In this document: positions 9,807 through 24,363 of the stretch, piece by piece
Numbering within the stretch: position 1 is the first letter of the stretch
How the letters are laid out: each line of letters begins with the position of its first letter
DNA from: Escherichia coli
Lineage (GTDB): Bacteria; Pseudomonadota; Gammaproteobacteria; Enterobacterales; Enterobacteriaceae
Reading direction: 5' to 3' (one strand)
Assembly: GCF_003019035.1 (NCBI RefSeq)
Contig: NZ_CP027447.1
DNA length: 64,000 bases
Position numbers and translations under genes: made by a program
Notes under the pieces: model-generated
Seen by the model: the letters and a program-made list of their open reading frames with translations, nothing else
Databases searched by the model: none
Told to the model about the DNA's origin: nothing

Positions 9807-10964
9807 TTAACGTGCCGGATGATGGACGGCGTTAAAACCCAGTTTACACAGCAATGATGCCGCACTGGCGTCATCACAAATTACATACAGAGATGACCAT
9901 TCACGGCGCTCAAGATAGTTTTTGCGCAGCTTATCGAACTCACCCGGTATTCCGGCGACTTTACGCAGCGGCGCGTCATCGCGGCGCACATCATACACCA
10001 AATGCACCAGCCTTTTCAGCGTCGGTTGATCGAGCGGGCCATGCAGCGTAATGCGACCAAACTCTGGCGCGGGCAGCAACGTATCCAGCGCAACGTGTTG
10101 TTCATGCCCAATAAACTTGCTATAAGCTTCAAACACTTGCGTAGTACCGCGTGCTTTACCTTCCAGGGTATAGCCTGCGATATGCGGCGTGCCGATATCC
10201 ACTTTTTTCAGCAATTCCACGTTAAGTTCCGGTTCGCCTTCCCAGACATCCAGCACTACGCTTAACTTCTGGCCTTCGTTCAGGCAGGTCAGCAGGGCGG
10301 TATTATCGACGACTGCGCCACGGCAGGCGTTAATCAGAATCGCTCCTGGTTTCAGGCTGCGGATCAGTTTTTCATCCGCCAGATGCAGCGTTTTGTACGG
10401 ACCATCTTTAAAGAGTGGCGTATGGAAAGTCAGAATATCCGCATGCTGAACTAATTCATCCAGCGAGCGGAAATCCCCCTCATCCCCACGGTCGGCGCGG
10501 GGCGGATCGCAAAGTAAGGTTTTGATCCCTAAAGCTTCCAGTCGCGCCTGTAAACGACGACCAACGTTACCAACGCCAACGATCCCCACGGTACGCTCGT
10601 GCAGTGAAAATCCATCGCGTTCGGCAAGCATCAGCAGGGAGGAGAAAACATATTCCACCACCGCAATCGCATTACAGCCAGGTGCCGCGGAAAAACCAAT
10701 TCCCGCCTGCTTTAACCACGCTTCATCGACATGGTCGGTCCCCGCGGTGGCAGTGCCAACAAATTTAATGGGTTTTCCTGCCAGCAAAGATTCATTCACT
10801 TTCGTGACCGAACGCACCATCAGCGCATCCGCGTCTGCCAGTTGAGCGACGGGGATTGGACGCCCGGGAACCGCGGTCACCTCACCCAAACGGCTAAATA
10901 AGTCGCGGGCATAAGGCATATTTTCATCAACAAGGATTTTTAACCCTTTTTCAGTCTCTGACAA
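9807..10964 (-). CDS. pdxB: Erythronate-4-phosphate dehydrogenase with a prophage-encoded N-terminal extension
   Basis: The body matches remembered PdxB ([15 protein letters not shown]...). The codon before KILVDEN is TTA. The only in-frame start is TTG at 10962-10964, 7 nt after an AGGAG on the minus strand (10972-10976). Codons 1-7 (SETEKGL) lie in phage DNA. Confidence 0.85.
10921..10940. repeat. attL core (20 bp)
   Basis: TTTTCATCAACAAGGATTTT is identical to 46884-46903. On the minus strand it encodes pdxB K-I-L-V-D-E-(N). Confidence 0.85.
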
Positions 10965-11122: not shown

Positions 11123-12127
11123 TTAATCCCCCGTGGACACTGCGTGGACACTCACGCCACCTTTCAGCGGATTAAGGGCCACCGCATCCTGCAGGTAATC
11201 CGGTGCAAAATGTGCATATGCCATTGTTTGCTGAATGGTTGCGTGGCCAAGAATCTTCTGAAGCGCAATAATGTTTCCTCCGTTCATCACAAAATGGCTG
11301 GCGAACGTATGCCGCAGCACATGTGCAGCTTGGCCTTTTGGCAAATCGGGCTTAACTCTTTTCAGCGCCAGGCAGAATTCCCGGTACTTCACCTCAAACA
11401 AGCCGCCTGTTTCTCTGGTTTTGATCGCCTCACAAACTGCCTGCGAAATTGGCACTGTTCTCTTTCGGCCATTTTTGGTTTCAAGAAACGTTACACGGTT
11501 ATGAACTATCTGTTCACCACGAAGCTTACAAGCTTCACTCCAGCGCGCCCCCGTGCTTAAACACAAAAGCGCAACACGCCAGTAATCGCCCTCCAGTGTA
11601 TCGAGCAATAGCGCCACTTCCTTCTGGGACAGGAAAGCCATTTCTCGTGGAGATACATAAAGAATAGAAATTCCCCTTACCGGATGTTCTGCATCCCAGA
11701 GGCCTATTTTCTTCAGTATGGTAAACATTCCGGATAACCGATTCATGTATCTGTTAGCAGATGACGGTTTCAATCCATCAGCTATCTTTTGAGAACGCCA
11801 CGCGATAATTTTTAGCTTATCAAGATCCACAGCCTGCATATCAGCGCCAAGCTCATTGATTATGTTGCGCAGTTGTTTTCGGTCTTCTTCCGCCTTACGC
11901 CTGTGCTGGCCGTGATACATCCACCACAACTCAAGCAAATCATTTAGCGTTCGACGATCACGGTAGCCCTGTATATATTCCCGCTTTTCAGCGTTCGCCA
12001 TGATGTAGCGTTCAGTGGCCACCGCTACCGATTTTTTGTCAAATACCTTACGCACGCGCTTTCCCTTGCGTCCGTTCGGCCTGATGTCCAGCAAATAACG
12101 ACCATCTTCGAGCTTCTTAATCGACAT
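11123..12127 (-). CDS. int: P2-type tyrosine integrase
   Basis: MSIKKLEDGRYLLDIRPNGRKGKR... aligns along its length with remembered P2 Int, including LSTGARW, HxLRHTFASH and MAYAHFAPDYL. The start is placed at MSIKK. Confidence 0.93.
   Translation of the reverse strand: MSIKKLEDGRYLLDIRPNGRKGKRVRKVFDKKSVAVATERYIMANAEKREYIQGYRDRRTLNDLLELWWMYHGQHRRKAEEDRKQLRNIINELGADMQAVDLDKLKIIAWRSQKIADGLKPSSANRYMNRLSGMFTILKKIGLWDAEHPVRGISILYVSPREMAFLSQKEVALLLDTLEGDYWRVALLCLSTGARWSEACKLRGEQIVHNRVTFLETKNGRKRTVPISQAVCEAIKTRETGGLFEVKYREFCLALKRVKPDLPKGQAAHVLRHTFASHFVMNGGNIIALQKILGHATIQQTMAYAHFAPDYLQDAVALNPLKGGVSVHAVSTGD
11133..11150. promoter_or_regulatory. Putative Int arm-type binding repeats (P' arm)
   Basis: GTGGACAC-TGC-GTGGACAC is a tandem repeat with 11-bp period inside the 3' end of int. 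A near-identical copy lies at 46820-46837. It resembles the P2 arm-site consensus TGTGGACA as I recall it. Confidence 0.55.
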
Positions 12128-12223
12128 TGCGAAGCCCTCCAATGAACCGCTCTACAATTTCTCCAGCCTCTTTCCAGCAATAATCAGACCAGACAAAAAG
12201 CAGGTCTAACCAGTTTTCTGGCC

Positions 12224-15241: not shown

Positions 15242-15334
15242 GAAACCAGAACATGCACACACAAAAAAACCGCTTGCCATGCCGCAATCAGTCAGGTTAC
15301 ATTTCCGCTGCACCTCACAAAACGGGTGCCGGGT

Positions 15335-15358
15335 TTCGCAGCCTGCTGACTACACAAG
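15335..15358 (+). promoter_or_regulatory. Upstream target-like copy (TTCGCAG ... CTACACAAG) complementary to the c4-like RNA
   Basis: TTCGCAG (15335-15341) and CTACACAAG (15350-15358) are exact complements of 15479-15485 and 15464-15472. Confidence 0.5.
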
Positions 15359-15363
15359 CGCAC

Positions 15364-15384
15364 AACCGCGCCAGCGGTTTTTTT
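15364..15384 (+). terminator. Rho-independent terminator
   Basis: Stem AACCGC/GCGGTT, loop GCCA, followed by T7. Confidence 0.65.
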
Positions 15385-15425
15385 GTGCGTACTGTATTGC
15401 CACGTTTTTTTCGCGTCAGAATTAT

Positions 15426-15506
15426 GGCGGGGCGTACGGGGCCGACTTCGGTCGGGCCGGGTTCTTGTGTAGCCGGTACTGCGAACCTCGTACGTCTCGC
15501 CACCCA
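15426..15506 (+). ncRNA. Candidate c4/CI-type antisense regulatory RNA (about 80 nt, three-way junction)
   Basis: A 14-16-bp closing stem (15426-15441 with 15486-15501) contains three G-U pairs that are valid only for a plus-strand RNA. It encloses a UUCG-tetraloop hairpin (15440-15458) and a second hairpin (GGTTC/GAACC, 15460-15487). The loop of the second hairpin carries CUUGUGUAG and CUGCGAA, which are complementary to sites upstream and downstream. The 3' tail is ACCCA (RCCA-like). No ORF. Confidence 0.5.
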
Positions 15507-15510
15507 CAGT

Positions 15511-15553
15511 TTCGCAGCTCTGGATGGTGAGTTTTCACAACTTACTACACAAG
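15511..15553 (+). promoter_or_regulatory. Downstream antisense target overlapping the RBS of the 76-aa ORF
   Basis: TTCGCAG (15511-15517) and CTACACAAG (15545-15553). The latter overlaps the AAGGGG Shine-Dalgarno, 7 nt before the ATG at 15564. Confidence 0.5.
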
Positions 15554-15563
15554 GGGCCACACC

Positions 15564-15794
15564 ATGGCAAACCGCAAACCACACCGCGCTATCGCGGAGC
15601 GTCGTCACATCCAGACTGAAATCAACCGCAGACTTTCCCGCGCATCACGCGTCGCGCAAATCATGCACATCAATATGCTGCATGAGCGCAGCCACGCACT
15701 ATCAAACATTTATTCCGCCTCTGTTTTCAGCTATCTGGCGGATGATCTGCACGAGCTTCAACAGCTCATCCAGCAGCAAAACAAACTCCATTAA
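15564..15794 (+). CDS. Hypothetical 76-aa protein (positional analogue of icd downstream of a c4-type RNA)
   Basis: ORF with an SD. Basic N-terminus and helical C-terminus. Family not recognised. Confidence 0.55.
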   Translation: MANRKPHRAIAERRHIQTEINRRLSRASRVAQIMHINMLHERSHALSNIYSASVFSYLADDLHELQQLIQQQNKLH

Positions 15795-15866: not shown

Positions 15867-16256
15867 ATGATTGACGCTCATGACTTCACAAGATGGGTGC
15901 GCACACAGGACACCCGTCTGGCTCCCGTTCTTCAGGGATTATTTGATCTCTACATCCGTGGTCGTGACAACAGAGCACGCACCACAAAACCAGAGAATGC
16001 AGACACCCTTTATTTCACAGTAGACGACTGCTACCGCGTGGACTTCACACCACACGGGCTGGCGTTGCACTGCCTGACACCACACGGCGAATCACTACTG
16101 GCTTATTACGACTCCCCGGCCTCCGTATTTGCGGCAATGCTGGCGCATCGCACTGCTGGCGGGTGTGCCTCGCTGAGTGAATACACCGCTGAATTTAACC
16201 GCCTTTCCACCCTCTTCTCGCAGGAGTGGCAGCGCGTGACGGGATACCAGCCATGA
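15867..16256 (+). CDS. Hypothetical 129-aa protein
   Basis: ORF whose stop overlaps the probable gene A start (ATGA). Confidence 0.55.
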   Translation: MIDAHDFTRWVRTQDTRLAPVLQGLFDLYIRGRDNRARTTKPENADTLYFTVDDCYRVDFTPHGLALHCLTPHGESLLAYYDSPASVFAAMLAHRTAGGCASLSEYTAEFNRLSTLFSQEWQRVTGYQP

Positions 16257-19093
16257 GTGAGTTTGCATGGAGCTGGAATGAACCACGGCCAGCCATTGAT
16301 CCAGCCAGATTTACGGAGCACAGGCAGGAAACTGAAACCGACCTGCAACGCGCCATCCGTTACTACCTTGAGGCGGACAAAAGGGCACAGAAAGAACAGG
16401 AAGCAAAGGAAGAAGCCTTTTTCGCACAATCCGCCATGGGTAAAAAACTCATGGCATCCCATGAGGAAGCCGGACAGCGTGAAAAGCTGGCACAGAGCAT
16501 CATCAGTAAGCGCCGGGCAACAGAACAAGACCCGGTAGCCCGTGCCTTTGCCACACTGAAGGCGCTTCCCGTTTATCTGCGAGAACCTCTGAGCCGCCAC
16601 CTCTCTTTCCTGCGCAAGAAGCAGGAAGCCGATCGTCAGAAAGGCAAAAAGAGCTGGCAGGCGGAACGCTATGCACGCGGAACCCTGCGCAAAATATTCG
16701 AACGTCTGGACCGCACCGACAGCCGCTGGCTGACACCGGGTTATCGCTCTCTTGCCGGACGCGAACGCCTGGACGATTTGCTTTACCTGCCGCAGCTCAA
16801 CAAACACCAGATACAGACGCTGGCCACCATGACGGCGGCGATGTTCAGCAGCACCTTCGAAAAACTCTGCGATGGCTTTGGCGCGACTGATGGCGAACTG
16901 ACCATGGATGTAACGCTGAAGGCGTATCAGATGCTGGCCCGCATGGCGTTACACCTGCACATCATGCCTCCACATTATGACGCACTGACAACAGATAAAG
17001 ACCGGAGGAACGAACCGGACACGGAGCTGCTGCCGGGCGCAATCCTTCGCCTGACCTGTGCGGAATGGTGGAAACGCAAACTGTGGCTGTTACGTTGCGA
17101 GTGGAGAGAAGAACAACTCCGCGCCGCCTGTCTGGTTTCCAGAAAAACATCACCCTATCTGAGCCAGGACGCGTTAAGCGAGTTTCGCGCACAGCGCGAG
17201 AAAACACGCGATTTCCTGAAAAGTTTCATGCTGGAAAATGAAGACGGGTTCACGATTGATCTCGAGACGGTGTATTACGCGGGAGTAAGTAACCCGGTTC
17301 ACCGTAAGGCAGAAATGATGGCCACCATGAAGGGACTGGAACTTCTGGCCGAAGCCCGTGGCGACAGAGCGGTGTTTCTGACTGTCACCTGCCCGTCAAA
17401 ATACCACGCAACAACGGAGAACGGTCATCCGAACCCCAAATGGAACGGGGCCACCATGCGCGACTCCAGCGATTACCTGGTTAACACGTTTTTTGCGGCG
17501 GTCCGCAAAAAACTGAACCGCGACGGCCTGCGCTGGTATGGCATCCGCACGGTGGAGCCTCACCATGACGGCACCGTGCACTGGCACATGATGGTCTTTG
17601 CTCATCCAGAAGAAATCGACAGCATCGTGGCCATCACCCGCGATATTGCCATTCAGGAAGACCGCCACGAGCTGGGCAATGATATTACTCCGCGCTTTAA
17701 GGTGGAGTATGTCGACGGCTCAAAAGGCACACCAACCAGCTACATCGCCACCTACATCGGAAAGAACCTGGACAGCCGCGCCGTGGATGGCATCGACCCG
17801 AAAACGGGCAAGCCACGCGTTGACCACGAAACCGGAAAATCAATGGCCGAGAGCGTGGAACGCGCCATCGGCTGGGCGCGCCTTCACCGGGTCCGCCAGT
17901 TCCAGTTCTTTGGTATCCCCTCCCGTCAGGTGTGGCGTGAACTGCGCCGCCTTGCCAGCCAGATGGCACGCAACCCGGAAGGCCCGCAACGGCTGAAGGA
18001 TGACGCAATGGACGCGGTACTCGCTGCCGCTGATGCCGGATGTTTTGCCACCTACATTGAGAAACAGGGTGGCGTACTTGTTCCACGCAAAGACTACCTG
18101 ATTCGCACCGCCTACGACCTCGCAGATGAGCTGAACGATTACGGCGAGCAGAGTGTACAGATTTACGGGATCTGGTCGCCGCTCATCGGGGAGTCTTCCC
18201 GCGTGTGCACGCACCCGGATAACTGGAAGCTGGTAAGACGTAAACCGGAAGCGGAAGACAGCGCCCGCGAAAATGGTTTTGACCTTCAGGGCGGCCCTGC
18301 CGCCCCTTGGACTCGTGGCAATAACTGTCCCCGTGTACAGGAAACGGACAACAACGGGACAGAACAGCCGGAAGAACGGCCAGCACCGTGGCCGCAGCTC
18401 CCTGACGGCGTTGAAGTGAACGAATGGATGCGCTCACTGAAACGGCACGAACGCCGGGCGCTGATGCGTTCGCTTCGTGACAAACAGGCAAAAAACAGCA
18501 GTGATGAAATGCAGAGCTGGACACAGAGCCGCAAACAGCAGCGGCCTTTGCCTGATAACCACGAATTACTCGCTAAAGAATGGCGGGAGTCTGCTGAATC
18601 TCTCGGCCTGCATATCGGTGAACAGCAGATGCAGCACCTGTTACGGGGCGGCAGTCTGTACGTTGACGGCAGCATCATTGCACCGCAGGGATTTGAAATT
18701 GTACGCAAACCGGATACCCGACCGGACAGCCGGATCACGCAGCTCTGGCAGCGCCTGAGCCGTAACCACGGCGTAAGCAGCACGGAGATCCGCCATAACC
18801 CGGTCGCCAGCTATCTGGAACAGCTGGCGGCATCAGACCCCGAAGCCGCCGCACGCCTGGCATCCACACTTCAGCAAGACCAGAACACCATGAAAACACC
18901 CGTTACCGTGCTTTCTGACATGCTGCGCGCCATCCGCGACGCAGAGCACGCACAGAGAATCAGTGAAACCACTGAACGCGCCCGCCGCAAAGCAGACCTG
19001 CTGCGGGGTGGCCTGACCATTGGAAACAAAAAACAGACAGAAACGGGATTCACAAATCCCGTAAATGAGCAAAAAACGCGCCGCGATATATGA
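16253..19093 (+). CDS. A: P2 gpA-type replication initiation endonuclease
   Basis: LTVTCPSKYHA and VEPHHDGTVHWHMMVF are rolling-circle HUH/Tyr motifs that parallel remembered P2 A. The start is placed at the ATG (MSEFAWSW) coupled to the upstream stop. Confidence 0.9.
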   Translation: MSEFAWSWNEPRPAIDPARFTEHRQETETDLQRAIRYYLEADKRAQKEQEAKEEAFFAQSAMGKKLMASHEEAGQREKLAQSIISKRRATEQDPVARAFATLKALPVYLREPLSRHLSFLRKKQEADRQKGKKSWQAERYARGTLRKIFERLDRTDSRWLTPGYRSLAGRERLDDLLYLPQLNKHQIQTLATMTAAMFSSTFEKLCDGFGATDGELTMDVTLKAYQMLARMALHLHIMPPHYDALTTDKDRRNEPDTELLPGAILRLTCAEWWKRKLWLLRCEWREEQLRAACLVSRKTSPYLSQDALSEFRAQREKTRDFLKSFMLENEDGFTIDLETVYYAGVSNPVHRKAEMMATMKGLELLAEARGDRAVFLTVTCPSKYHATTENGHPNPKWNGATMRDSSDYLVNTFFAAVRKKLNRDGLRWYGIRTVEPHHDGTVHWHMMVFAHPEEIDSIVAITRDIAIQEDRHELGNDITPRFKVEYVDGSKGTPTSYIATYIGKNLDSRAVDGIDPKTGKPRVDHETGKSMAESVERAIGWARLHRVRQFQFFGIPSRQVWRELRRLASQMARNPEGPQRLKDDAMDAVLAAADAGCFATYIEKQGGVLVPRKDYLIRTAYDLADELNDYGEQSVQIYGIWSPLIGESSRVCTHPDNWKLVRRKPEAEDSARENGFDLQGGPAAPWTRGNNCPRVQETDNNGTEQPEERPAPWPQLPDGVEVNEWMRSLKRHERRALMRSLRDKQAKNSSDEMQSWTQSRKQQRPLPDNHELLAKEWRESAESLGLHIGEQQMQHLLRGGSLYVDGSIIAPQGFEIVRKPDTRPDSRITQLWQRLSRNHGVSSTEIRHNPVASYLEQLAASDPEAAARLASTLQQDQNTMKTPVTVLSDMLRAIRDAEHAQRISETTERARRKADLLRGGLTIGNKKQTETGFTNPVNEQKTRRDI
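19043..19062. repeat. Palindrome ACGGGATTcacaAATCCCGT (copy 1; candidate parC/ParR site)
   Basis: 8-bp arms within a roughly 30-bp unit that is repeated 73 bp downstream. Lies in the last codons of gene A. Confidence 0.45.
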
Positions 19094-19115
19094 AGCGCGC
19101 ATAAAACAGGCAAAA

Positions 19116-19135
19116 ACGGGATTTCAGAATCCCGT
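19116..19135. repeat. Palindrome ACGGGATTtcagAATCCCGT (copy 2; candidate parC/ParR site)
   Basis: Same arms as copy 1. Lies 35 bp upstream of the parM ATG. Confidence 0.45.
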
Positions 19136-19169
19136 AAACGATTAATTAATCAACATAAGGAAAAGCGAC

Positions 19170-20129
19170 ATGAAAATTTGTATCGATGACGGCTCCACCA
19201 ACATCAAGCTGGCATGGACTGAGAACGGCGAACGCCGCAACGCCATCAGCCCGAACAGCTTCAAGTCGGAATGGTCTGCGCCGTTCGGTGGCACGCAGCC
19301 CGCGAACTACATGCTTGATGGCGTGCGCTATGGTTTTGATCCGGTCAGCGATCGCTTTGTCCAGACGACCGACACGCAATACCAGTACAGCGATGTGAAT
19401 GTCATTGCCATTCATCACGCGCTGGTCAAATCAGGCATCACACCACAGGAAGTGGATGTGGTTGTCACCCTGCCACTGAGCGAATATTTCGACACAAACG
19501 CACAGCCGGACATGGCCAACATCAACCGCAAAAAAGCAAACGTCATGCGCCCGGTGGCGTACCAGAACGGAAAAGCATTCACTATCCGTAACGTACGGGT
19601 TATGCCTGAATCCATTCCGGCTGGTTTTAAAGCACTGGCTGACATGAGTCCGTTTGAATCCCTGCTGATTGTGGATTTAGGCGGAACCACGCTGGATGTG
19701 GCAAAGGTTCAGGGACAACTGGCAGGTATCAGCCAGGTGTTTTGCGATCCACACGTAGGCGTTTCCCTGATGGCCGATGCCGTACTGTCGGTGATGGCCA
19801 CTAACGGTATGCGCACCAGTCACCACATCGCCAATACCATTATCGAACATCGCCATGATGAAGCCTGGCTGCGCCAGCACATCCACAATGACGCGCATTA
19901 CGCCAGCCTGATGGCGGTTATTCGTGAAAAGGAAGAAACACTGAAACAACGCGTGATCCGCGCGCTGGCGGTTTTTTCGGGTTACGGGCGGGTGATGGTT
20001 GTCGGTGGCGGGGCGGAGATTGTGGCACCCGCTATCCGCGAAGCCTGCGGAGTTAATGCGACTTTCATCGCGGACGGGGTGCCACAATTTGCTCTGGTTA
20101 ATGGGCTGTACGCAATGAACAAGGAGTAA
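19170..20129 (+). CDS. parM: ParM/StbA actin-like plasmid segregation ATPase
   Basis: 319 aa. ICIDDGSTNIKLAW, YSDVNVIAIHHAL, MPESIPAG, IVDLGGTTLDV and VVGGGAE align colinearly with remembered plasmid R1 ParM. Confidence 0.85.
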   Translation: MKICIDDGSTNIKLAWTENGERRNAISPNSFKSEWSAPFGGTQPANYMLDGVRYGFDPVSDRFVQTTDTQYQYSDVNVIAIHHALVKSGITPQEVDVVVTLPLSEYFDTNAQPDMANINRKKANVMRPVAYQNGKAFTIRNVRVMPESIPAGFKALADMSPFESLLIVDLGGTTLDVAKVQGQLAGISQVFCDPHVGVSLMADAVLSVMATNGMRTSHHIANTIIEHRHDEAWLRQHIHNDAHYASLMAVIREKEETLKQRVIRALAVFSGYGRVMVVGGGAEIVAPAIREACGVNATFIADGVPQFALVNGLYAMNKE

Positions 20130-20133
20130 ACCA

Positions 20134-20445
20134 ATGACGACACCAACCAGAAGAATAAGTTTCTATCTGAAGCCAGCTGCCGTCAAGAACGAAGGAGAAG
20201 CATGCGCCTGGCTGGACAGTCTTACACCAGAAGCCCGCAAAAGCGGCCAACGCGTGGCTTTTCTGGCCGGGCTGGCACTTCTGAAGACGAATCCGGCAGA
20301 GGCTTACCGACTGGCCGCATGGGCTGATGATGAGATGTTACCTGTGACACAAATCAGCTCAAAAAAGTTTGAAGCACAGTCTGCACCAGTGGCTAAGATA
20401 ACCAGCCAGATGGCTGGGAATATCCGGGCGTTATTTCCTGAGTAA
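20134..20445 (+). CDS. parR: ParR-like centromere-binding adaptor
   Basis: 103 aa. RRISFYLKP...LDSLTPEARKSGQRVAFLAGLALLKTNP parallels the R1 ParR N-terminal RHH region. Lies immediately downstream of parM. Confidence 0.7.
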   Translation: MTTPTRRISFYLKPAAVKNEGEACAWLDSLTPEARKSGQRVAFLAGLALLKTNPAEAYRLAAWADDEMLPVTQISSKKFEAQSAPVAKITSQMAGNIRALFPE

Positions 20446-20515
20446 AAGCATCTGCGCGAAAAATGCTCACGTTTATAGAGACAGTATCATTCCATTTGGC
20501 ACACTTACTTCAATA

Positions 20516-20602
20516 ATCGATCTGTTAAACAAATAGATTGTCTATTATCTATCGATTAAAACGATCAATTATCTTGACAGTAATGTGCCTTTTTGTAAGA
20601 TC
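20516..20602 (+). promoter_or_regulatory. GATC-rich operator-like module plus sigma70-like promoter reading rightward
   Basis: ATCGATCTGTTA (20516-20527) and ATCGATTAAAACGATCAAT (20551-20569). TTGACA (20574-20579), 16 nt, TAAGAT (20596-20601). Three GATC sites at 20519, 20563 and 20599; the last overlaps the -10. Both motifs recur at 45754-45804. Confidence 0.5.
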
Positions 20603-20809
20603 GTTCGCATTGTGAGCGACAAGATAATTGCGCGGCATTGTCCATGCAAAACGCCCCAATAGCAGCAACTATTGGGGCGTAAAACTCGGTCGGACTCACT
20701 TAACCTGATATGCGTGCCTTCCGAAGTAAATCAAAATGTGCGTCGTATATTTTATTGCTTACACGCACCTCTGTAAAGGCACGCATATTTTTCCTATGAG
20801 GTAAATAAA

Positions 20810-21079
20810 GTGCGGGCTAAAACAGGTATTTGCAAGAACCCTCATCGTTATAATCCAACATTTCTGTCTCTCCCTGAATATCAAGGACAAGAAGGTCGGC
20901 ACAAATGCGCTGCCTGTGCTTTTGAGCTAGGCATAAAAGATGCGCTTGAAGGACGCGCTATGGCTCAGAATGATTTAGTTTTAGCTAACATTCCGTTTAG
21001 CCAGGCTGGAACTGTAAGGCACAGAGATGCCTATGAAGCATATGTTCGTGGTTGGCGATTAATACACAGCAACAATTGA
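20810..21079 (+). CDS. Hypothetical 89-aa moron protein
   Basis: GTG start 9 nt after GAGG. It has its own promoter region and a strong terminator. Contains HKCAACAFELG. Family not recognised. Confidence 0.5.
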   Translation: MRAKTGICKNPHRYNPTFLSLPEYQGQEGRHKCAACAFELGIKDALEGRAMAQNDLVLANIPFSQAGTVRHRDAYEAYVRGWRLIHSNN

Positions 21080-21088
21080 TACTTTTGA

Positions 21089-21111
21089 AGCGCCGATAAG
21101 GCGCTTTTTTT
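21089..21111 (+). terminator. Rho-independent terminator
   Basis: AGCGCC-gataa-GGCGCT followed by T7. Confidence 0.8.
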
Positions 21112-21398
21112 GTTTGCACGATAGTGCACAAGTTTGCACAATTTTTTTGAACGACTTTTTGTACTTCCGGCCCGCGTGGTGGCTGGATCCGTCAAGGATC
21201 CGTACGTGCACAAAAATACGCGTTTTTTCTGCGCGCAGGTGACGGGGGAACAGCCCGCGTTTCAGGGGGTAAATAGCATTCCCTTAACGATGTCGCAGCG
21301 ACATGACAGAATGGCCGTATTTCTCACGCTGAGCGTGAAAAATACGTGAGGGATTCTGCTTTGATGGGGTGAAAGGTAAGGCCGTCAAAATCGCACTG

Positions 21399-21420
21399 AG
21401 GCGGCGAGAACATGCAGTCA
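21399..21420. other. Possible cos (cohesive end) region
   Basis: GGCGGCGAGAACATGCAGTCAG lies about 165 bp from the 3' end of Q, the expected P2 cos position. It has only weak resemblance to remembered P2 cos (GGCGAGGCGGGGAAAGCAC). Confidence 0.25.
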
Positions 21421-21514
21421 GCGCAGTGGGATTGCGTAAGAGTCTGACCGTCGATGATGGCAATAAGCAGGAAAGCGTCGTGAAATTATCTGACTGATAC
21501 AGGAGCTGGAGAGT

Positions 21515-21539
21515 CGGGGCATAAATTTTTTATGCCCCG
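21515..21539. other. GC-rich hairpin just downstream of Q
   Basis: CGGGGCATAAA-ttt-TTTATGCCCCG, an 11-bp stem with no flanking U tract. Confidence 0.4.
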
Positions 21540-21565
21540 GCGAAGCAGCAGACAAGCGAAGCGCG

Positions 21566-22612
21566 TCAGGATGTGGGCTGGGTATCTAACAGTGCGTAAG
21601 GGTTAAAGCGGATCACCTCTTCGCCAAGCCAGTCATTGATGTGCTTCATGGCCTCCATGACGGGCATCAGCTCGTTAATTGCGTAAACCCGCGCGGCCTT
21701 CTCCACATCACCAAACGCACTTTTTTCGCCCGGCATCGCCCCCATCAGTTGCGGCGGAACGCGGTGCGCAGCCAGCACATCATCACGGGATGCCGCCTTA
21801 ACATTCATGAACTCATCTTTTGCGGTGATCTGCTGGAACGGCAAAATTTGCACCCCCTCTTTGCCCCCGTTGGGCGCATGAATGAGCACGTTTTTAAACG
21901 CACCACCACCACGTGCCCCCTGTAGCGTTTCTTTCAGGGAGTCCATGCTTTCGCGGTTTACCTGCGCTGCACCGATGTAGATGATGCACCCGGCGTGGGA
22001 TCCGTTGTCGTAGTACAGTTTTCTGAACATGTCCGCTGAATGAGAAAGGCTGGCCGAGAGTAATGCGCCAAGATATTCCGGCATGCCGTAGATTTCCTGG
22101 TTAATATCCGGATTCATCAGGTGGCACACTTTGCCAGGACGAAACTGGAACGCGTCCTTGCCATCCTGCACATACCACCATGATTCAAGATCGCTTCCGC
22201 GTCGCATGTATTTCGCCAGGGCGTGCCGTAATTTAAGCGGTTCGCCGAGCATATTGCTTCGAAGCTCAAGGAATGCGTTACCGAACACAAACCAGTCCAG
22301 CGCCAGCGCCGAGAAATCCTGCCGGGAAAGCAGCGGGTGCGGGATGTAGCAACCGAGTAATACATTGCGCTTAAAGTAAAGCGCAGACTGATGCCAGGAC
22401 GTTTGCCGGGCAGCTCTTGCCAGACCGTACCAGTCCACCGGGGTTTCATACCACCGCCCGTTATCAGCACAGTACATATTGTCCAGCAGGTCATGCCCGG
22501 TCAGGCGATAAGGACCATCAAATGTGAATGCACTGAGCGATGATTCTTTCCTGAGCGCATCAGCGAGATCAATGCGTGAACTCATGCGCACTTTTTTATT
22601 TTTTCTGCTCAT
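21566..22612 (-). CDS. Q: Portal protein (P2 gpQ)
   Basis: 348 aa, colinear with remembered P2 Q (GRWYE, VFGNAFLE, PDINQEIYGMPEYL, HRVPPQLMG). Confidence 0.93.
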   Translation of the reverse strand: MSRKNKKVRMSSRIDLADALRKESSLSAFTFDGPYRLTGHDLLDNMYCADNGRWYETPVDWYGLARAARQTSWHQSALYFKRNVLLGCYIPHPLLSRQDFSALALDWFVFGNAFLELRSNMLGEPLKLRHALAKYMRRGSDLESWWYVQDGKDAFQFRPGKVCHLMNPDINQEIYGMPEYLGALLSASLSHSADMFRKLYYDNGSHAGCIIYIGAAQVNRESMDSLKETLQGARGGGAFKNVLIHAPNGGKEGVQILPFQQITAKDEFMNVKAASRDDVLAAHRVPPQLMGAMPGEKSAFGDVEKAARVYAINELMPVMEAMKHINDWLGEEVIRFNPYALLDTQPTS

Positions 22613-24363
22613 CAGAACTCCATAACCGTGAAACGCTCGTTTTCTCCTTCGCCGCCAATCGGTTCGTTAATGACAGCAAGCATGGTTGCCCACGCAAGGT
22701 CGCCGTGGCTGATCCCCCTCGCTCGGTCCGTTTCGTAAGTGATAAAGCCGCCCGGTGTTTTCACCTTACGCACGGCGTTAAAGGCCGCGACCAGCTCGCG
22801 TTCGGCGCGATCGTATTCCCACCGCCCGGCACGCATTATTTGCAGCATTTTCAGTACCAGCGACCGTTTTGATGACAGCGTGAAGGTGTACGGAATAGCA
22901 GCAGGGAAAAACCGCTTCACTATCTGATAAACAGCCTCCCCGTTCCCGCCCGTCACATCAATGCCGATGTGTTCCACGTTGTAGCGATACGTGAACTCTT
23001 CAATGACTCTGGCCTGTTCTTCAAACTCCAGCCCCTGAACGCGTCGCGTCTCCACCGTTCGAAAACGGCCACCAGGAACAGCCGGAGGAACCACCACGGA
23101 CACAGCGCCGCTGTCGCCGTTGCCACTACTGCCGTTTGCGTCATACCCAATCCATACCGGACGATTCCCCATCGGGCGGGGAGCAAAAGGTTTCCAGTCT
23201 TTCCAGTCGTCGTATCCGTCAACACCACAGCCAATCAGGATATTCAGGTTAAATGCCGATTCCCCTTCGCGGACAAACTCACACATATAGAGATTGAGGA
23301 ACTCGTCTTCGGTGTTTTCATCACGAATTTCATCAATATCGGTGTGTTTCCAGCCGTGATTAACCACATCTTCCAGCGTGACAATTTGCCGCCACGTCCG
23401 GTCAGGGCAGATAAGCCCGTTATGCAGCGTTTTCCAGTCCACAGAAAAACGCTGGCGTTTATGCGTGGCCTTTTTCTCGTTCCAGCGGTCGCCGTTCCAG
23501 TAGGCGTATGCCTCGTGCGTTTCGGTGGATGGCGTGGAGAAGTAGGTGCGCCGCAGTCCGCTGAGGGTTGCCATAGCGCCAGCCACCTTGCGCAGTTCAG
23601 CAAAGCGACTGACCCAGAAAAATTCATCAAAATAAAAATTGCCCGTATAGGACTGTGCCGACGCAGCAGAAGTGCCGAGAAAATGCAGCTCTGCGCCGTT
23701 GGAGAGGATGATTTTATCACCCCCTTTCAGCTCCACATCAACTTCAGCCGCGGCCTTCTGAATAATGCTTTTAAACTGGAACGCCTGACGACGCGACGCA
23801 GACAAAAAAATCTGGTTACGCTGGTAAGGTTGCGCCACATCGTCACGCAGCGCCATCAGCAGCGCTTCCTGTGCAAAATACCAGGTCGCCCCAATCTGTC
23901 GGGATTTCAGGATCATCCTGTTACGTATCCCGGCTTCCCTGCAAAGGGTCAGGGAGTCAAACCAGCCCCGCTGATGCCACTCCAGCCTGCTGATGATTTT
24001 TTCCCGCAGTGCGGCAATCTGTTCCGGCGTGAAATGATTTTTGAGTTTTTTCGCCCGGCCTTTCTTTCCTGCGGCCATCACATCCGGCTGGCCATCATGC
24101 AGCTTTTTAAGCTGCCGGGTCAGCAGGTCTATTTCCTTAAAGTCACCGCCTGTTTTATTCTGTTTTTCAGTAAGCTGGATGAGGCGCGCATCGATGGACT
24201 GCGTGACACGCTGCACGGGTGGCGTTTCATCCCACTGGTCACGTTTTTTCCACGCATAAATCGTGTTCGGGTTTATTCCCATCAGACGTGATATTTCTGC
24301 GGGCGGATAACCCTGCCAGTAAAGTTGCCGCGCACGCTGGCGCACAAAAGCGTCCTGAATCAT
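22612..24363 (-). CDS. P: Terminase large (ATPase) subunit (P2 gpP)
   Basis: 583 aa with an N-terminal HTH-like region and a terminase ATPase/nuclease body. Overlaps the Q start. Confidence 0.92.
   Translation of the reverse strand: MIQDAFVRQRARQLYWQGYPPAEISRLMGINPNTIYAWKKRDQWDETPPVQRVTQSIDARLIQLTEKQNKTGGDFKEIDLLTRQLKKLHDGQPDVMAAGKKGRAKKLKNHFTPEQIAALREKIISRLEWHQRGWFDSLTLCREAGIRNRMILKSRQIGATWYFAQEALLMALRDDVAQPYQRNQIFLSASRRQAFQFKSIIQKAAAEVDVELKGGDKIILSNGAELHFLGTSAASAQSYTGNFYFDEFFWVSRFAELRKVAGAMATLSGLRRTYFSTPSTETHEAYAYWNGDRWNEKKATHKRQRFSVDWKTLHNGLICPDRTWRQIVTLEDVVNHGWKHTDIDEIRDENTEDEFLNLYMCEFVREGESAFNLNILIGCGVDGYDDWKDWKPFAPRPMGNRPVWIGYDANGSSGNGDSGAVSVVVPPAVPGGRFRTVETRRVQGLEFEEQARVIEEFTYRYNVEHIGIDVTGGNGEAVYQIVKRFFPAAIPYTFTLSSKRSLVLKMLQIMRAGRWEYDRAERELVAAFNAVRKVKTPGGFITYETDRARGISHGDLAWATMLAVINEPIGGEGENERFTVMEF

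Follow-up and report, generated by a model that had tools for sequence, protein, structure and literature searches.

Features of the Locus

The stretch of DNA analyzed here (the window) comprises 64,000 nucleotides (nt) of the Escherichia coli contig NZ_CP027447.1 (assembly GCF_003019035.1), and the system in question is a parM/parR gene pair (parMR), preceded by a two-site cis element, within an integrated prophage. The prophage is a P88-like member of the P2 family (genus Xuanwuvirus, Peduoviridae). An earlier note on this DNA had described the pair as a plasmid R1-type partition cassette situated in the A–Q interval of an integrated P2-like prophage, and this location is borne out by the gene positions and by the attachment (att) repeats, a 20-base pair (bp) direct repeat, TTTTCATCAACAAGGATTTT, at 10921 and 46884, with the prophage integrated at pdxB. 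Gene A, parM, and parR lie on one strand. The features of the module, with protein lengths in amino acids (aa), are the following.

16226–19093, + strand: gene A, encoding a P2-type rolling-circle replication endonuclease (gpA) of 955 aa (Pfam Phage_GPA, E 3.8e-131)
19027–19068: repeat unit copy 1, with the palindrome ACGGGATTcacaAATCCCGT at 19043–19062 (core GGG-N10-CCC); candidate ParR site 1, inside gene A
19100–19141: repeat unit copy 2, with the palindrome ACGGGATTtcagAATCCCGT at 19116–19135; candidate ParR site 2, 52 nt before the parM ATG
19142–19169, + strand: parM leader, with a conserved ATTAATCAA...TAAGGA motif and the parM ribosome-binding site
19170–20129, + strand: parM, encoding an actin-fold ATPase of 319 aa (Pfam, PHROG, and PDB matches)
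20134–20445, + strand: parR, encoding a StbB-type adaptor of 103 aa (Pfam PF10784; head 1–66, linker 67–95, tail NIRALFPE)

ParM and ParR Proteins

The proposal that the 319-aa open reading frame (ORF) encodes an R1-type ParM is supported by full-length matches in Pfam, the PDB, and PHROGs. The profile check suggested for the StbA/ParM and ParR families gives matches to both. ParM residues 1–157 correspond to Pfam StbA_N (E 6.9e-82) and residues 159–316 to the Pfam ParM C-terminal domain (E 6.2e-69), while ParR residues 6–71 correspond to Pfam Plasmid_stab_B (StbB/ParR, PF10784; E 9.8e-24), in line with the resemblance of the 103-aa ORF to the ParR N-terminal region that had been reported. PHROGs describes both ParM and ParR as "partition protein", the latter as PHROG 2515 (E 2e-59).

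In a phmmer search against the PDB, the R1 ParM of entry 1mwk is colinear with residues 2–316 of the prophage protein (E 1.3e-92), at an identity of about 47–50%. The segments IDDGSTNIKL, VMPESIPAG, DLGGTTLD, and GGGAE are identical in R1 ParM in this alignment, and the nucleotide motifs, i.e., phosphate 1 (DDGST), the catalytic Glu (in MPESIP), phosphate 2 (DLGGTT), and adenosine (GGGAE), are invariant in an alignment of seven phage ParM sequences. Substitutions that would inactivate the ATPase motifs were looked for on the R1 alignment and none was found, the motifs being identical to those of R1 and therefore free of inactivating changes.

The parR gene follows immediately downstream, after a gap of 4 nt from the parM stop codon. 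A sequence comparison of ParR with the PDB gave no match. The AlphaFold2 (AF2) model of the ParR monomer, which is of low confidence (pLDDT 53), has helices at residues 20–29, 32–52, and 54–61, with the N-terminal strand unresolved, as expected for an obligate dimer. Residues 1–66 are conserved across at least 70 variants, and an invariant TRRISFYLKP is found where the β-strand of a ribbon-helix-helix fold is expected. Residues 67–95 (window 20332–20420) are hypervariable, several of the linker sequences being unrelated to each other, and lie between this conserved head and an eight-residue tail. The tail itself is conserved as NIRALFPE or NIQxFFPE (N-I-x-x-L/F-F-P), even among alleles with unrelated linkers, and its N and L positions align with those of the R1 ParR tail. 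A type II adaptor would be expected to be built in this way, from a DNA-binding head, a flexible linker, and a ParM-binding tail. Since the linker is hypervariable, the left edge of the mosaic hotspot, at which conserved DNA passes into mosaic DNA, falls within the parR gene. Next to a ParM of 98% identity, ParR may be only about 84% or about 55% identical, depending on the allele.

The ratio pN/pS, computed on sampled pairs and for parM over 101 unique alleles, is 0.079 for parM, below the value of 0.29 for the gene A tail. For parR, the values are 0.20 (residues 1–66), 0.70 (linker), and 0.125 (tail). An intact ParM is found in 152 of 154 related loci (phage, genome, and IMG/VR collections) and an intact ParR in about 149, the module as a whole being intact in about 97%. 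The ParM/ParR module is thus real, intact, and under purifying selection. Few disrupted copies are found, namely frameshifts in phage 503458 and an IS1 insertion in strain CH4793. These copies are what one would point to if the module were a decaying relic of an old plasmid–phage recombination, functionless now. We regard such a scenario as exceedingly improbable, and the selection data exclude it: the parM pN/pS and the 152 intact copies speak against decay, as do the retention of the module across genera at 54–62% ParM identity and the conservation of the ParR tail beside a hypervariable linker.

The Two-Site Element Upstream of parM

Upstream of parM, a unit of 42 nt is present twice, the two copies being 81% identical and 73 bp apart from start to start, and each contains a palindrome of the form ACGGGATT-N4-AATCCCGT. 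The two palindromes, reported earlier at 19043–19062 and 19116–19135 with this same spacing, are confirmed, the full unit around each being the 42-nt repeat. The palindrome pattern is found at only these two places in the window even when two mismatches are allowed, and shuffled sequences predict 0 occurrences. As had also been observed, one of the palindromes lies inside gene A: the palindrome of copy 1 sits in the last 50 nt of the coding sequence, and the pair straddles the gene A stop codon. Across 81 unique sequences from the upstream region, the palindrome cores (CGGGA and AATCC) are nearly invariant, and it is the 4-nt centers that vary.

The pair recurs in a Hafnia prophage (L011) and a Plesiomonas prophage (L013), the ParM proteins of which are only 62% identical to that of the window. 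Relative to the parM ATG, the GGG-N10-CCC sites are at −125 and −52 in the window, −128 and −55 in L011, and −131 and −59 in L013, corresponding to spacings of 73, 73, and 72 bp, respectively, and in all three cases the distal site is located within the upstream coding sequence. L011 serves as an independent test, as only the window and L013 had been used to define the motif. Such a pair was obtained in 0 of 20000 resampled upstream segments. The ATTAATCAA...TAAGGA motif before parM is likewise common to the window, L011, and L013, as judged by eye.

The inner bases of the GGG-N10-CCC sites differ between the three lineages, and site 1 folds no better than shuffled sequences in L013 (−4.6 kcal/mol, z −0.6) and in L011 (−5.2 kcal/mol, z −0.2). 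For these reasons, the conserved property is a DNA motif with a fixed geometry rather than a hairpin, which favors a candidate ParR site over a terminator.

An alternative is that the palindromes do not constitute a centromere but are RNA elements (minus-strand terminators or mRNA hairpins) or only an autoregulatory operator, the true ParR loading site being elsewhere or nonexistent. On the minus strand, both palindromes do resemble terminators, with 8-bp stems followed by T-rich tails. The window palindromes also fold better than shuffled sequences (−10.2 kcal/mol, z about −2.7), and two common polymorphisms in the arms of copy 2 preserve G–U pairing on the + strand. However, the sites of L013 and L011 retain only GGG and CCC with a 10-nt center, and the reading as minus-strand terminators was rejected because the hairpin is not kept in these two loci. 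Furthermore, variants of copy 1 disrupt the pairing without compensation, and no minus-strand gene converges on the palindromes. As to the operator, R1 parC serves as operator and centromere both, and the two roles are compatible here in the same way. We consider it quite unlikely that the palindromes have no centromere role. An Rfam scan of 18800–21700 gave nothing above threshold.

No 11-bp iteron array is found at the prophage locus with the tools that do recover such arrays in the closest plasmid relatives and in an R1-like plasmid. The R1-like IncFII plasmid has two clusters of 11-bp-period repeats upstream of stbA; the prophage has two palindromes, i.e., four half-sites, and falls outside the direct-iteron definition of parC. 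The earlier characterization of the element as atypical compared with R1 parC is consistent with this result. The two-block layout with a spacing of 72–73 bp is nevertheless kept between the phage element and the plasmid relative L169, and the AATCCC half-site resembles, by eye, the A-rich-CCC core of the R1 iterons. On the basis of these comparisons, the phage element looks like a two-cluster parC that has been reduced to one palindrome per cluster. The proposal that the palindromes represent a minimal parC is credible, the two of them forming an atypical candidate centromere or operator.

Association with Gene A and Position Relative to the Hotspot

A gpA at least 85% identical to that of the window is present in 14 of 378 gpA-bearing phage records, and the same 14 P2-family records encode this ParM. 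In the remaining 364 records, gpA is less than 60% identical and no ParM is encoded. The features around the module are given below.

20446–21565: variable cargo segment of the A–Q hotspot, adjoining the par module and outside it; holds the 89-aa ORF
20810–21079, + strand: 89-aa ORF (PHROG 3941, unknown function; no Pfam or PADLOC match)
21566–22612, − strand: portal gene (Q); the module lies between gene A and this gene
22612–24363, − strand: terminase gene
11123–12142: integrase gene, adjoining a pdxB-type dehydrogenase gene

In 100 loci with a near-identical parM, the DNA from the parR stop codon to the portal gene exhibits at least 30 unrelated arrangements, with lengths of 534–3410 bp. 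Since the variable cargo begins after parR and parMR is linked to the gpA type, the module is not part of the hotspot content. It constantly accompanies the P88-type gpA, as a neighbor of the hotspot and not as swappable cargo. The view of the earlier note that the module is "occupying" the A–Q hotspot has therefore to be revised: the module is carried by 14 of the 14 records with a like gpA, and the cargo arrangements start after parR.

Two further scenarios were rejected. The module is not defense cargo, as parMR is constant, the cargo after parR varies, and the PADLOC defense models match neither ParM, ParR, nor the 89-aa ORF. A recent capture from a plasmid is ruled out by the identity of the plasmid ParM proteins, which is at most 52%, apart from a handful of prophage-bearing records.

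It is also conceivable that the module has been exapted for a role other than moving phage DNA, either the exclusion of phages or plasmids by partition incompatibility or the stimulation of nicking by gpA. gpA and the TraI relaxase are both rolling-circle-type nicking enzymes, and parMR is strictly tied to one gpA type, with one of the two sites within gene A. Moreover, the module adjoins a known defense hotspot (PMC9122126, PMC13586616), and TraI is bound and stimulated by R1 ParM and ParR (PMC4949242), the extension of this to gpA being more speculative. The missing PADLOC matches argue against exaptation, as does the constancy of parMR, whereas the defense cargo varies. In addition, no part of a classical segregation machine has been lost, the ParR tail and the ParM ATPase motifs being among those kept. 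We therefore judge an exapted role to be very unlikely.

The gap between gene A and parM is 76 nt long, and neither a + strand terminator nor a sigma-70-like promoter was scored in it. Weak −35/−10-like hexamers are the only promoter-like feature, seen by eye in the spacer between the palindromes. Because there is no terminator and no recognizable promoter between the two genes, co-transcription is the simplest reading, and parMR is probably transcribed together with gene A. Further upstream, the early region (window 15253–15560) contains a strong terminator-like hairpin on the + strand with a run of eight T (15364–15379), then promoter-like sites (15397–15425). These are followed by a 76-aa ORF (15564–15794), where P88 annotates a "derepression protein", and by gene A. 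A transcript comprising gene A and parMR may start near 15397–15425 and not at the main early promoter. The exact LexA-box core, CTGT-N8-ACAG, is absent from the early region, and its single match in the window, at 18325 inside gene A, is at chance level.

The C-terminal ~140 residues of gpA (about 812–955, window 18659–19093) end in site 1. Alignments to the gpA proteins of P2-family phages that do not have parMR end at about residue 811, so the C-terminal part is lineage-specific. In the Hafnia relatives, a separate 167-aa ORF is found between gene A and parM.

In the cargo segment, a promoter-like site on the + strand (TTGACA-16-TAAGAT, 20574–20601) is located upstream of the 89-aa ORF, and a + strand terminator is found at 21087–21107. 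On the minus strand, a promoter-like site at 20777–20749 faces a perfect 12-bp hairpin with a T-run at 20680–20651. From this pair, an antisense RNA of ~95 nt would be expected to span the 5′ leader. In Rfam, the hairpin has matches below threshold only, to the antisense RNA families ctRNA and sar.

Distribution and Divergent Relatives

Some part of the segment 18900–21560 is matched in 1438 of 5426 complete E. coli genomes, and 2105 of the 2107 matching places are chromosomal. These numbers bear on the possibility that the element is a facultative plasmid prophage, in which the module supports a long-term, low-copy plasmid state instead of, or besides, integration. The idea of a plasmid stage is in print (Rousset et al. 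2022, PMC9122126), and one PLSDB record (NZ_CP148288.1, L166; circular, 34,461 bp), deposited as a "plasmid" of the feline E. coli isolate Z1323PEC0009, is a complete P88-like phage with parMR. However, the chromosomal location of nearly all the matching places speaks against it, and the other plasmid matches are records of 27 kb to 1.4 Mb, which are not phage-sized. NZ_CP148288.1 itself keeps the integrase, and the chromosome of a sister strain of the same series, Z1323HEC0067, contains an integrated phage that is 100% identical over the compared 4 kb (gene A to the portal side). The circle may be excised or induced DNA that was assembled as a separate contig; such a circle and a true episome are both possible. 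In addition, the prophage of the window is itself integrated, as the 20-bp att repeats indicate, and parMR is apparently co-transcribed with the lytic gene A, which a lysogen would normally repress. The genomic evidence for a plasmid stage is thin, and we consider such a stage unlikely as the purpose of the module.

Divergent relatives were found by a protein-homologue search and subsequent look-up of the encoding contigs. Direct scans yielded fewer: three near-identical loci only in the genome contigs with ParM, only relatives of 98–100% identity in the viral contigs with the ParM alignment, and 0 and 1 locus in the viral contigs with the Hafnia and Plesiomonas ParM proteins, respectively. 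P2-like prophages of Hafnia, Plesiomonas, Serratia, and Enterobacter encode ParM proteins of 54–62% identity in the same slot, in the order gpA, parM, parR, variable cargo (for example, HicAB, KAP NTPase, or ogr), and portal, some of them with a small gene between gpA and parM. ParM homologues of at most 52% identity are on plasmids or on integrated conjugative or plasmid DNA. One contig of 226 kb (L009, NZ_JBQPOM010000071.1), labeled as Vagococcus sp. WN89Y (Firmicutes), encodes a ParM that shares 97% identity with its E. coli phage counterpart; the label is probably due to contamination of the assembly or to mislabeling.

In a small neighbor-joining tree, the ParM proteins of the window, Hafnia, and Plesiomonas form one group (group I), while those of Serratia and Enterobacter form a second phage group (group II) that is about equally near to the plasmid ParM proteins and to the first group. 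The group I phages have the GGG-N10-CCC palindrome pair and the ParR β-strand TRR[IV]SFYL; the group II phages have a 20-nt inverted repeat and the ParR β-strand NRKISFYL. In the plasmid relatives, 11-bp iterons are arrayed in two clusters, with a distance of 72 bp between the clusters of L169. The type of cis element thus follows the ParM/ParR lineage, as would be expected of a cognate centromere.

In the group II loci (L014/L098, L015/L016, L097/L100, and L099, from Serratia, Enterobacter, and IMG/VR contigs), ParR is 133–134 aa long, and a conserved inverted repeat of 14–20 nt, GGGAAC..ATAGAAAAAT - N26-28 - ATTTTTCT..GTTCCC, is found before parM in place of the palindrome pair. This repeat is probably a different, putative centromere design.

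Proposed Function

The explanation that we favor, with moderate confidence, is that parMR is a functional type II (ParM/ParR) segregation module, fixed in the replication region of the P88-like (Xuanwuvirus) phages of the P2 family and of related Enterobacterales prophages. According to this proposal, ParR dimers would bind both GGG-N10-CCC palindromes through their N-terminal part, which is predicted to adopt the ribbon-helix-helix fold, and the conserved C-terminal tail of ParR would capture the ends of ParM filaments. ATP-driven polymerization of ParM would then separate or position circular extrachromosomal phage genomes. The likely substrate would be a transient episome, present after infection and before integration, after excision, and as monomeric circles during the rolling-circle replication by gpA, while the integrated copy of the prophage would have no need for partition. 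By analogy with the AlpACS and SrpMRC systems discussed below, a role on extrachromosomal circular phage DNA is the most likely one.

A more specific version, which we find possible but doubtful, is that the module is a dedicated "mitotic" apparatus, in which a minimal two-palindrome centromere, overlapping the 3′ end of gene A, would allow ParR and ParM to move apart or place the monomeric circles that gpA generates, with stimulation of gpA itself as a further possibility. If so, loss of parMR would measurably lower the burst size, the yield of phage DNA, or the frequency of lysogenization. An actin-like cytoskeleton would then be a requirement of about a quarter of the P2-like prophages of E. 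coli, and a type II centromere would need no more than four half-sites.

Several points weigh against a segregation function. The binding by ParR, the ParM filaments, and the phenotype of the module are inferred from sequence, and it is not obvious why partition is needed in a short lytic cycle. With four half-sites, compared with ten iterons in R1, it is in doubt whether a complex capable of capturing filaments could form. In the closely related E. coli population, the whole spacer between gene A and parM is conserved, the palindromes included, and the population data alone therefore single out the palindromes poorly. One locus (L043, IMGVR_UViG_2657245439_000011) has a 73-bp deletion between the units that leaves one hybrid palindrome and moves the gene A stop codon, and it keeps parM and parR intact despite the loss of one repeat unit. 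Finally, the two phage ParM groups are not clearly monophyletic with respect to the plasmid proteins, which would correspond to either one or two acquisitions.

Comparison with Known Systems

The closest known system is that of plasmids R1 and R100 (ParMRC, also parA or stb), with which the prophage module shares a colinear ParM with identical nucleotide motifs, a ParR of the StbB Pfam family, the order cis site, parM, parR, and a cis element arranged in two blocks upstream of parM. The differences concern mainly the centromere. In R1, a clear TTGACA promoter is flanked by two clusters of five 11-bp direct iterons each, ten in total, whereas the prophage element consists of two palindromes of 20 bp (four half-sites) at a distance of 73 bp and lacks a recognizable promoter. 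The carrier is an integrating P2-family phage rather than a low-copy plasmid, and ParR has 103 aa compared with 117 aa (from the 354-nt stbB gene) in R1. The system is predicted to work like ParMRC, with a variant layout of the centromere.

SrpMRC (Carraro et al. 2015, PMC4489591) stabilizes the excised form of SXT/R391, for the replication of which TraI, a relaxase, and oriT are required. It is similar to the present module in being a ParMRC-type system on a normally integrated element, with a transient circular form as its target. SrpM and SrpR are, however, distant from R1 ParMR, while the prophage pair is a close member of the R1 family. The carrier of SrpMRC is conjugative and its activity has been shown by experiment; the prophage module has a phage carrier, and its role is deduced.

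AlpACS of the Corynebacterium glutamicum prophage CGP3 is induced early and is needed for efficient replication of the phage DNA (Donovan et al. 2015, PMC4446434; PMC5539076). As in the present case, an integrated prophage encodes an actin-like filament former (AlpC) and a co-transcribed adaptor (AlpA), with adaptor sites (alpS) upstream of the operon, where the present module has its candidate ParR sites. The layout of the prophage module, with the putative sites upstream and the genes on the strand of gene A, is compatible with that of AlpACS. AlpACS differs in that its prophage is actinobacterial, the adaptor gene comes first, and the role has been demonstrated, whereas for the prophage parMR it is a predicted one.

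The cassette is already known as a feature in RefSeq, PHROGs, the P88 annotation, and the literature. gp17 and gp18 of P88 are annotated as ParM and partition protein, the relatives of P88 are annotated alike, and PGAP names parM and parR in the listed E. coli genome records. Rousset et al. (2022, PMC9122126) list a partition system of P2-like phages, which is the same module, among the hotspot systems; it is treated there as a hotspot system and appears here as a constant neighbor of the hotspot with a two-site cis element. A 2026 survey of P2 hotspots (PMC13586616) does not mention parMR, and no functional study came up in literature searches that combined ParM with P88, Xuanwuvirus, or Peduoviridae. 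What is added here is the status of the module as gpA-linked backbone, the conserved two-site cis element, and the organization of ParR into a head, a hypervariable linker, and a conserved tail.

Implications

The module is present in roughly a quarter of the complete E. coli genomes. Should it indeed act on the DNA of the phage, surveys of defense hotspots should count parMR as flank and not as hotspot content. AlpACS of CGP3 and SrpMRC of SXT/R391 would then have a widespread counterpart in Gram-negative bacteria, which would lend weight to the idea that active partition is needed by integrating elements in their episomal phases. The two-palindrome element would in that case be a naturally minimal type II centromere, suited to counting how many ParR sites a filament-capturing complex needs.

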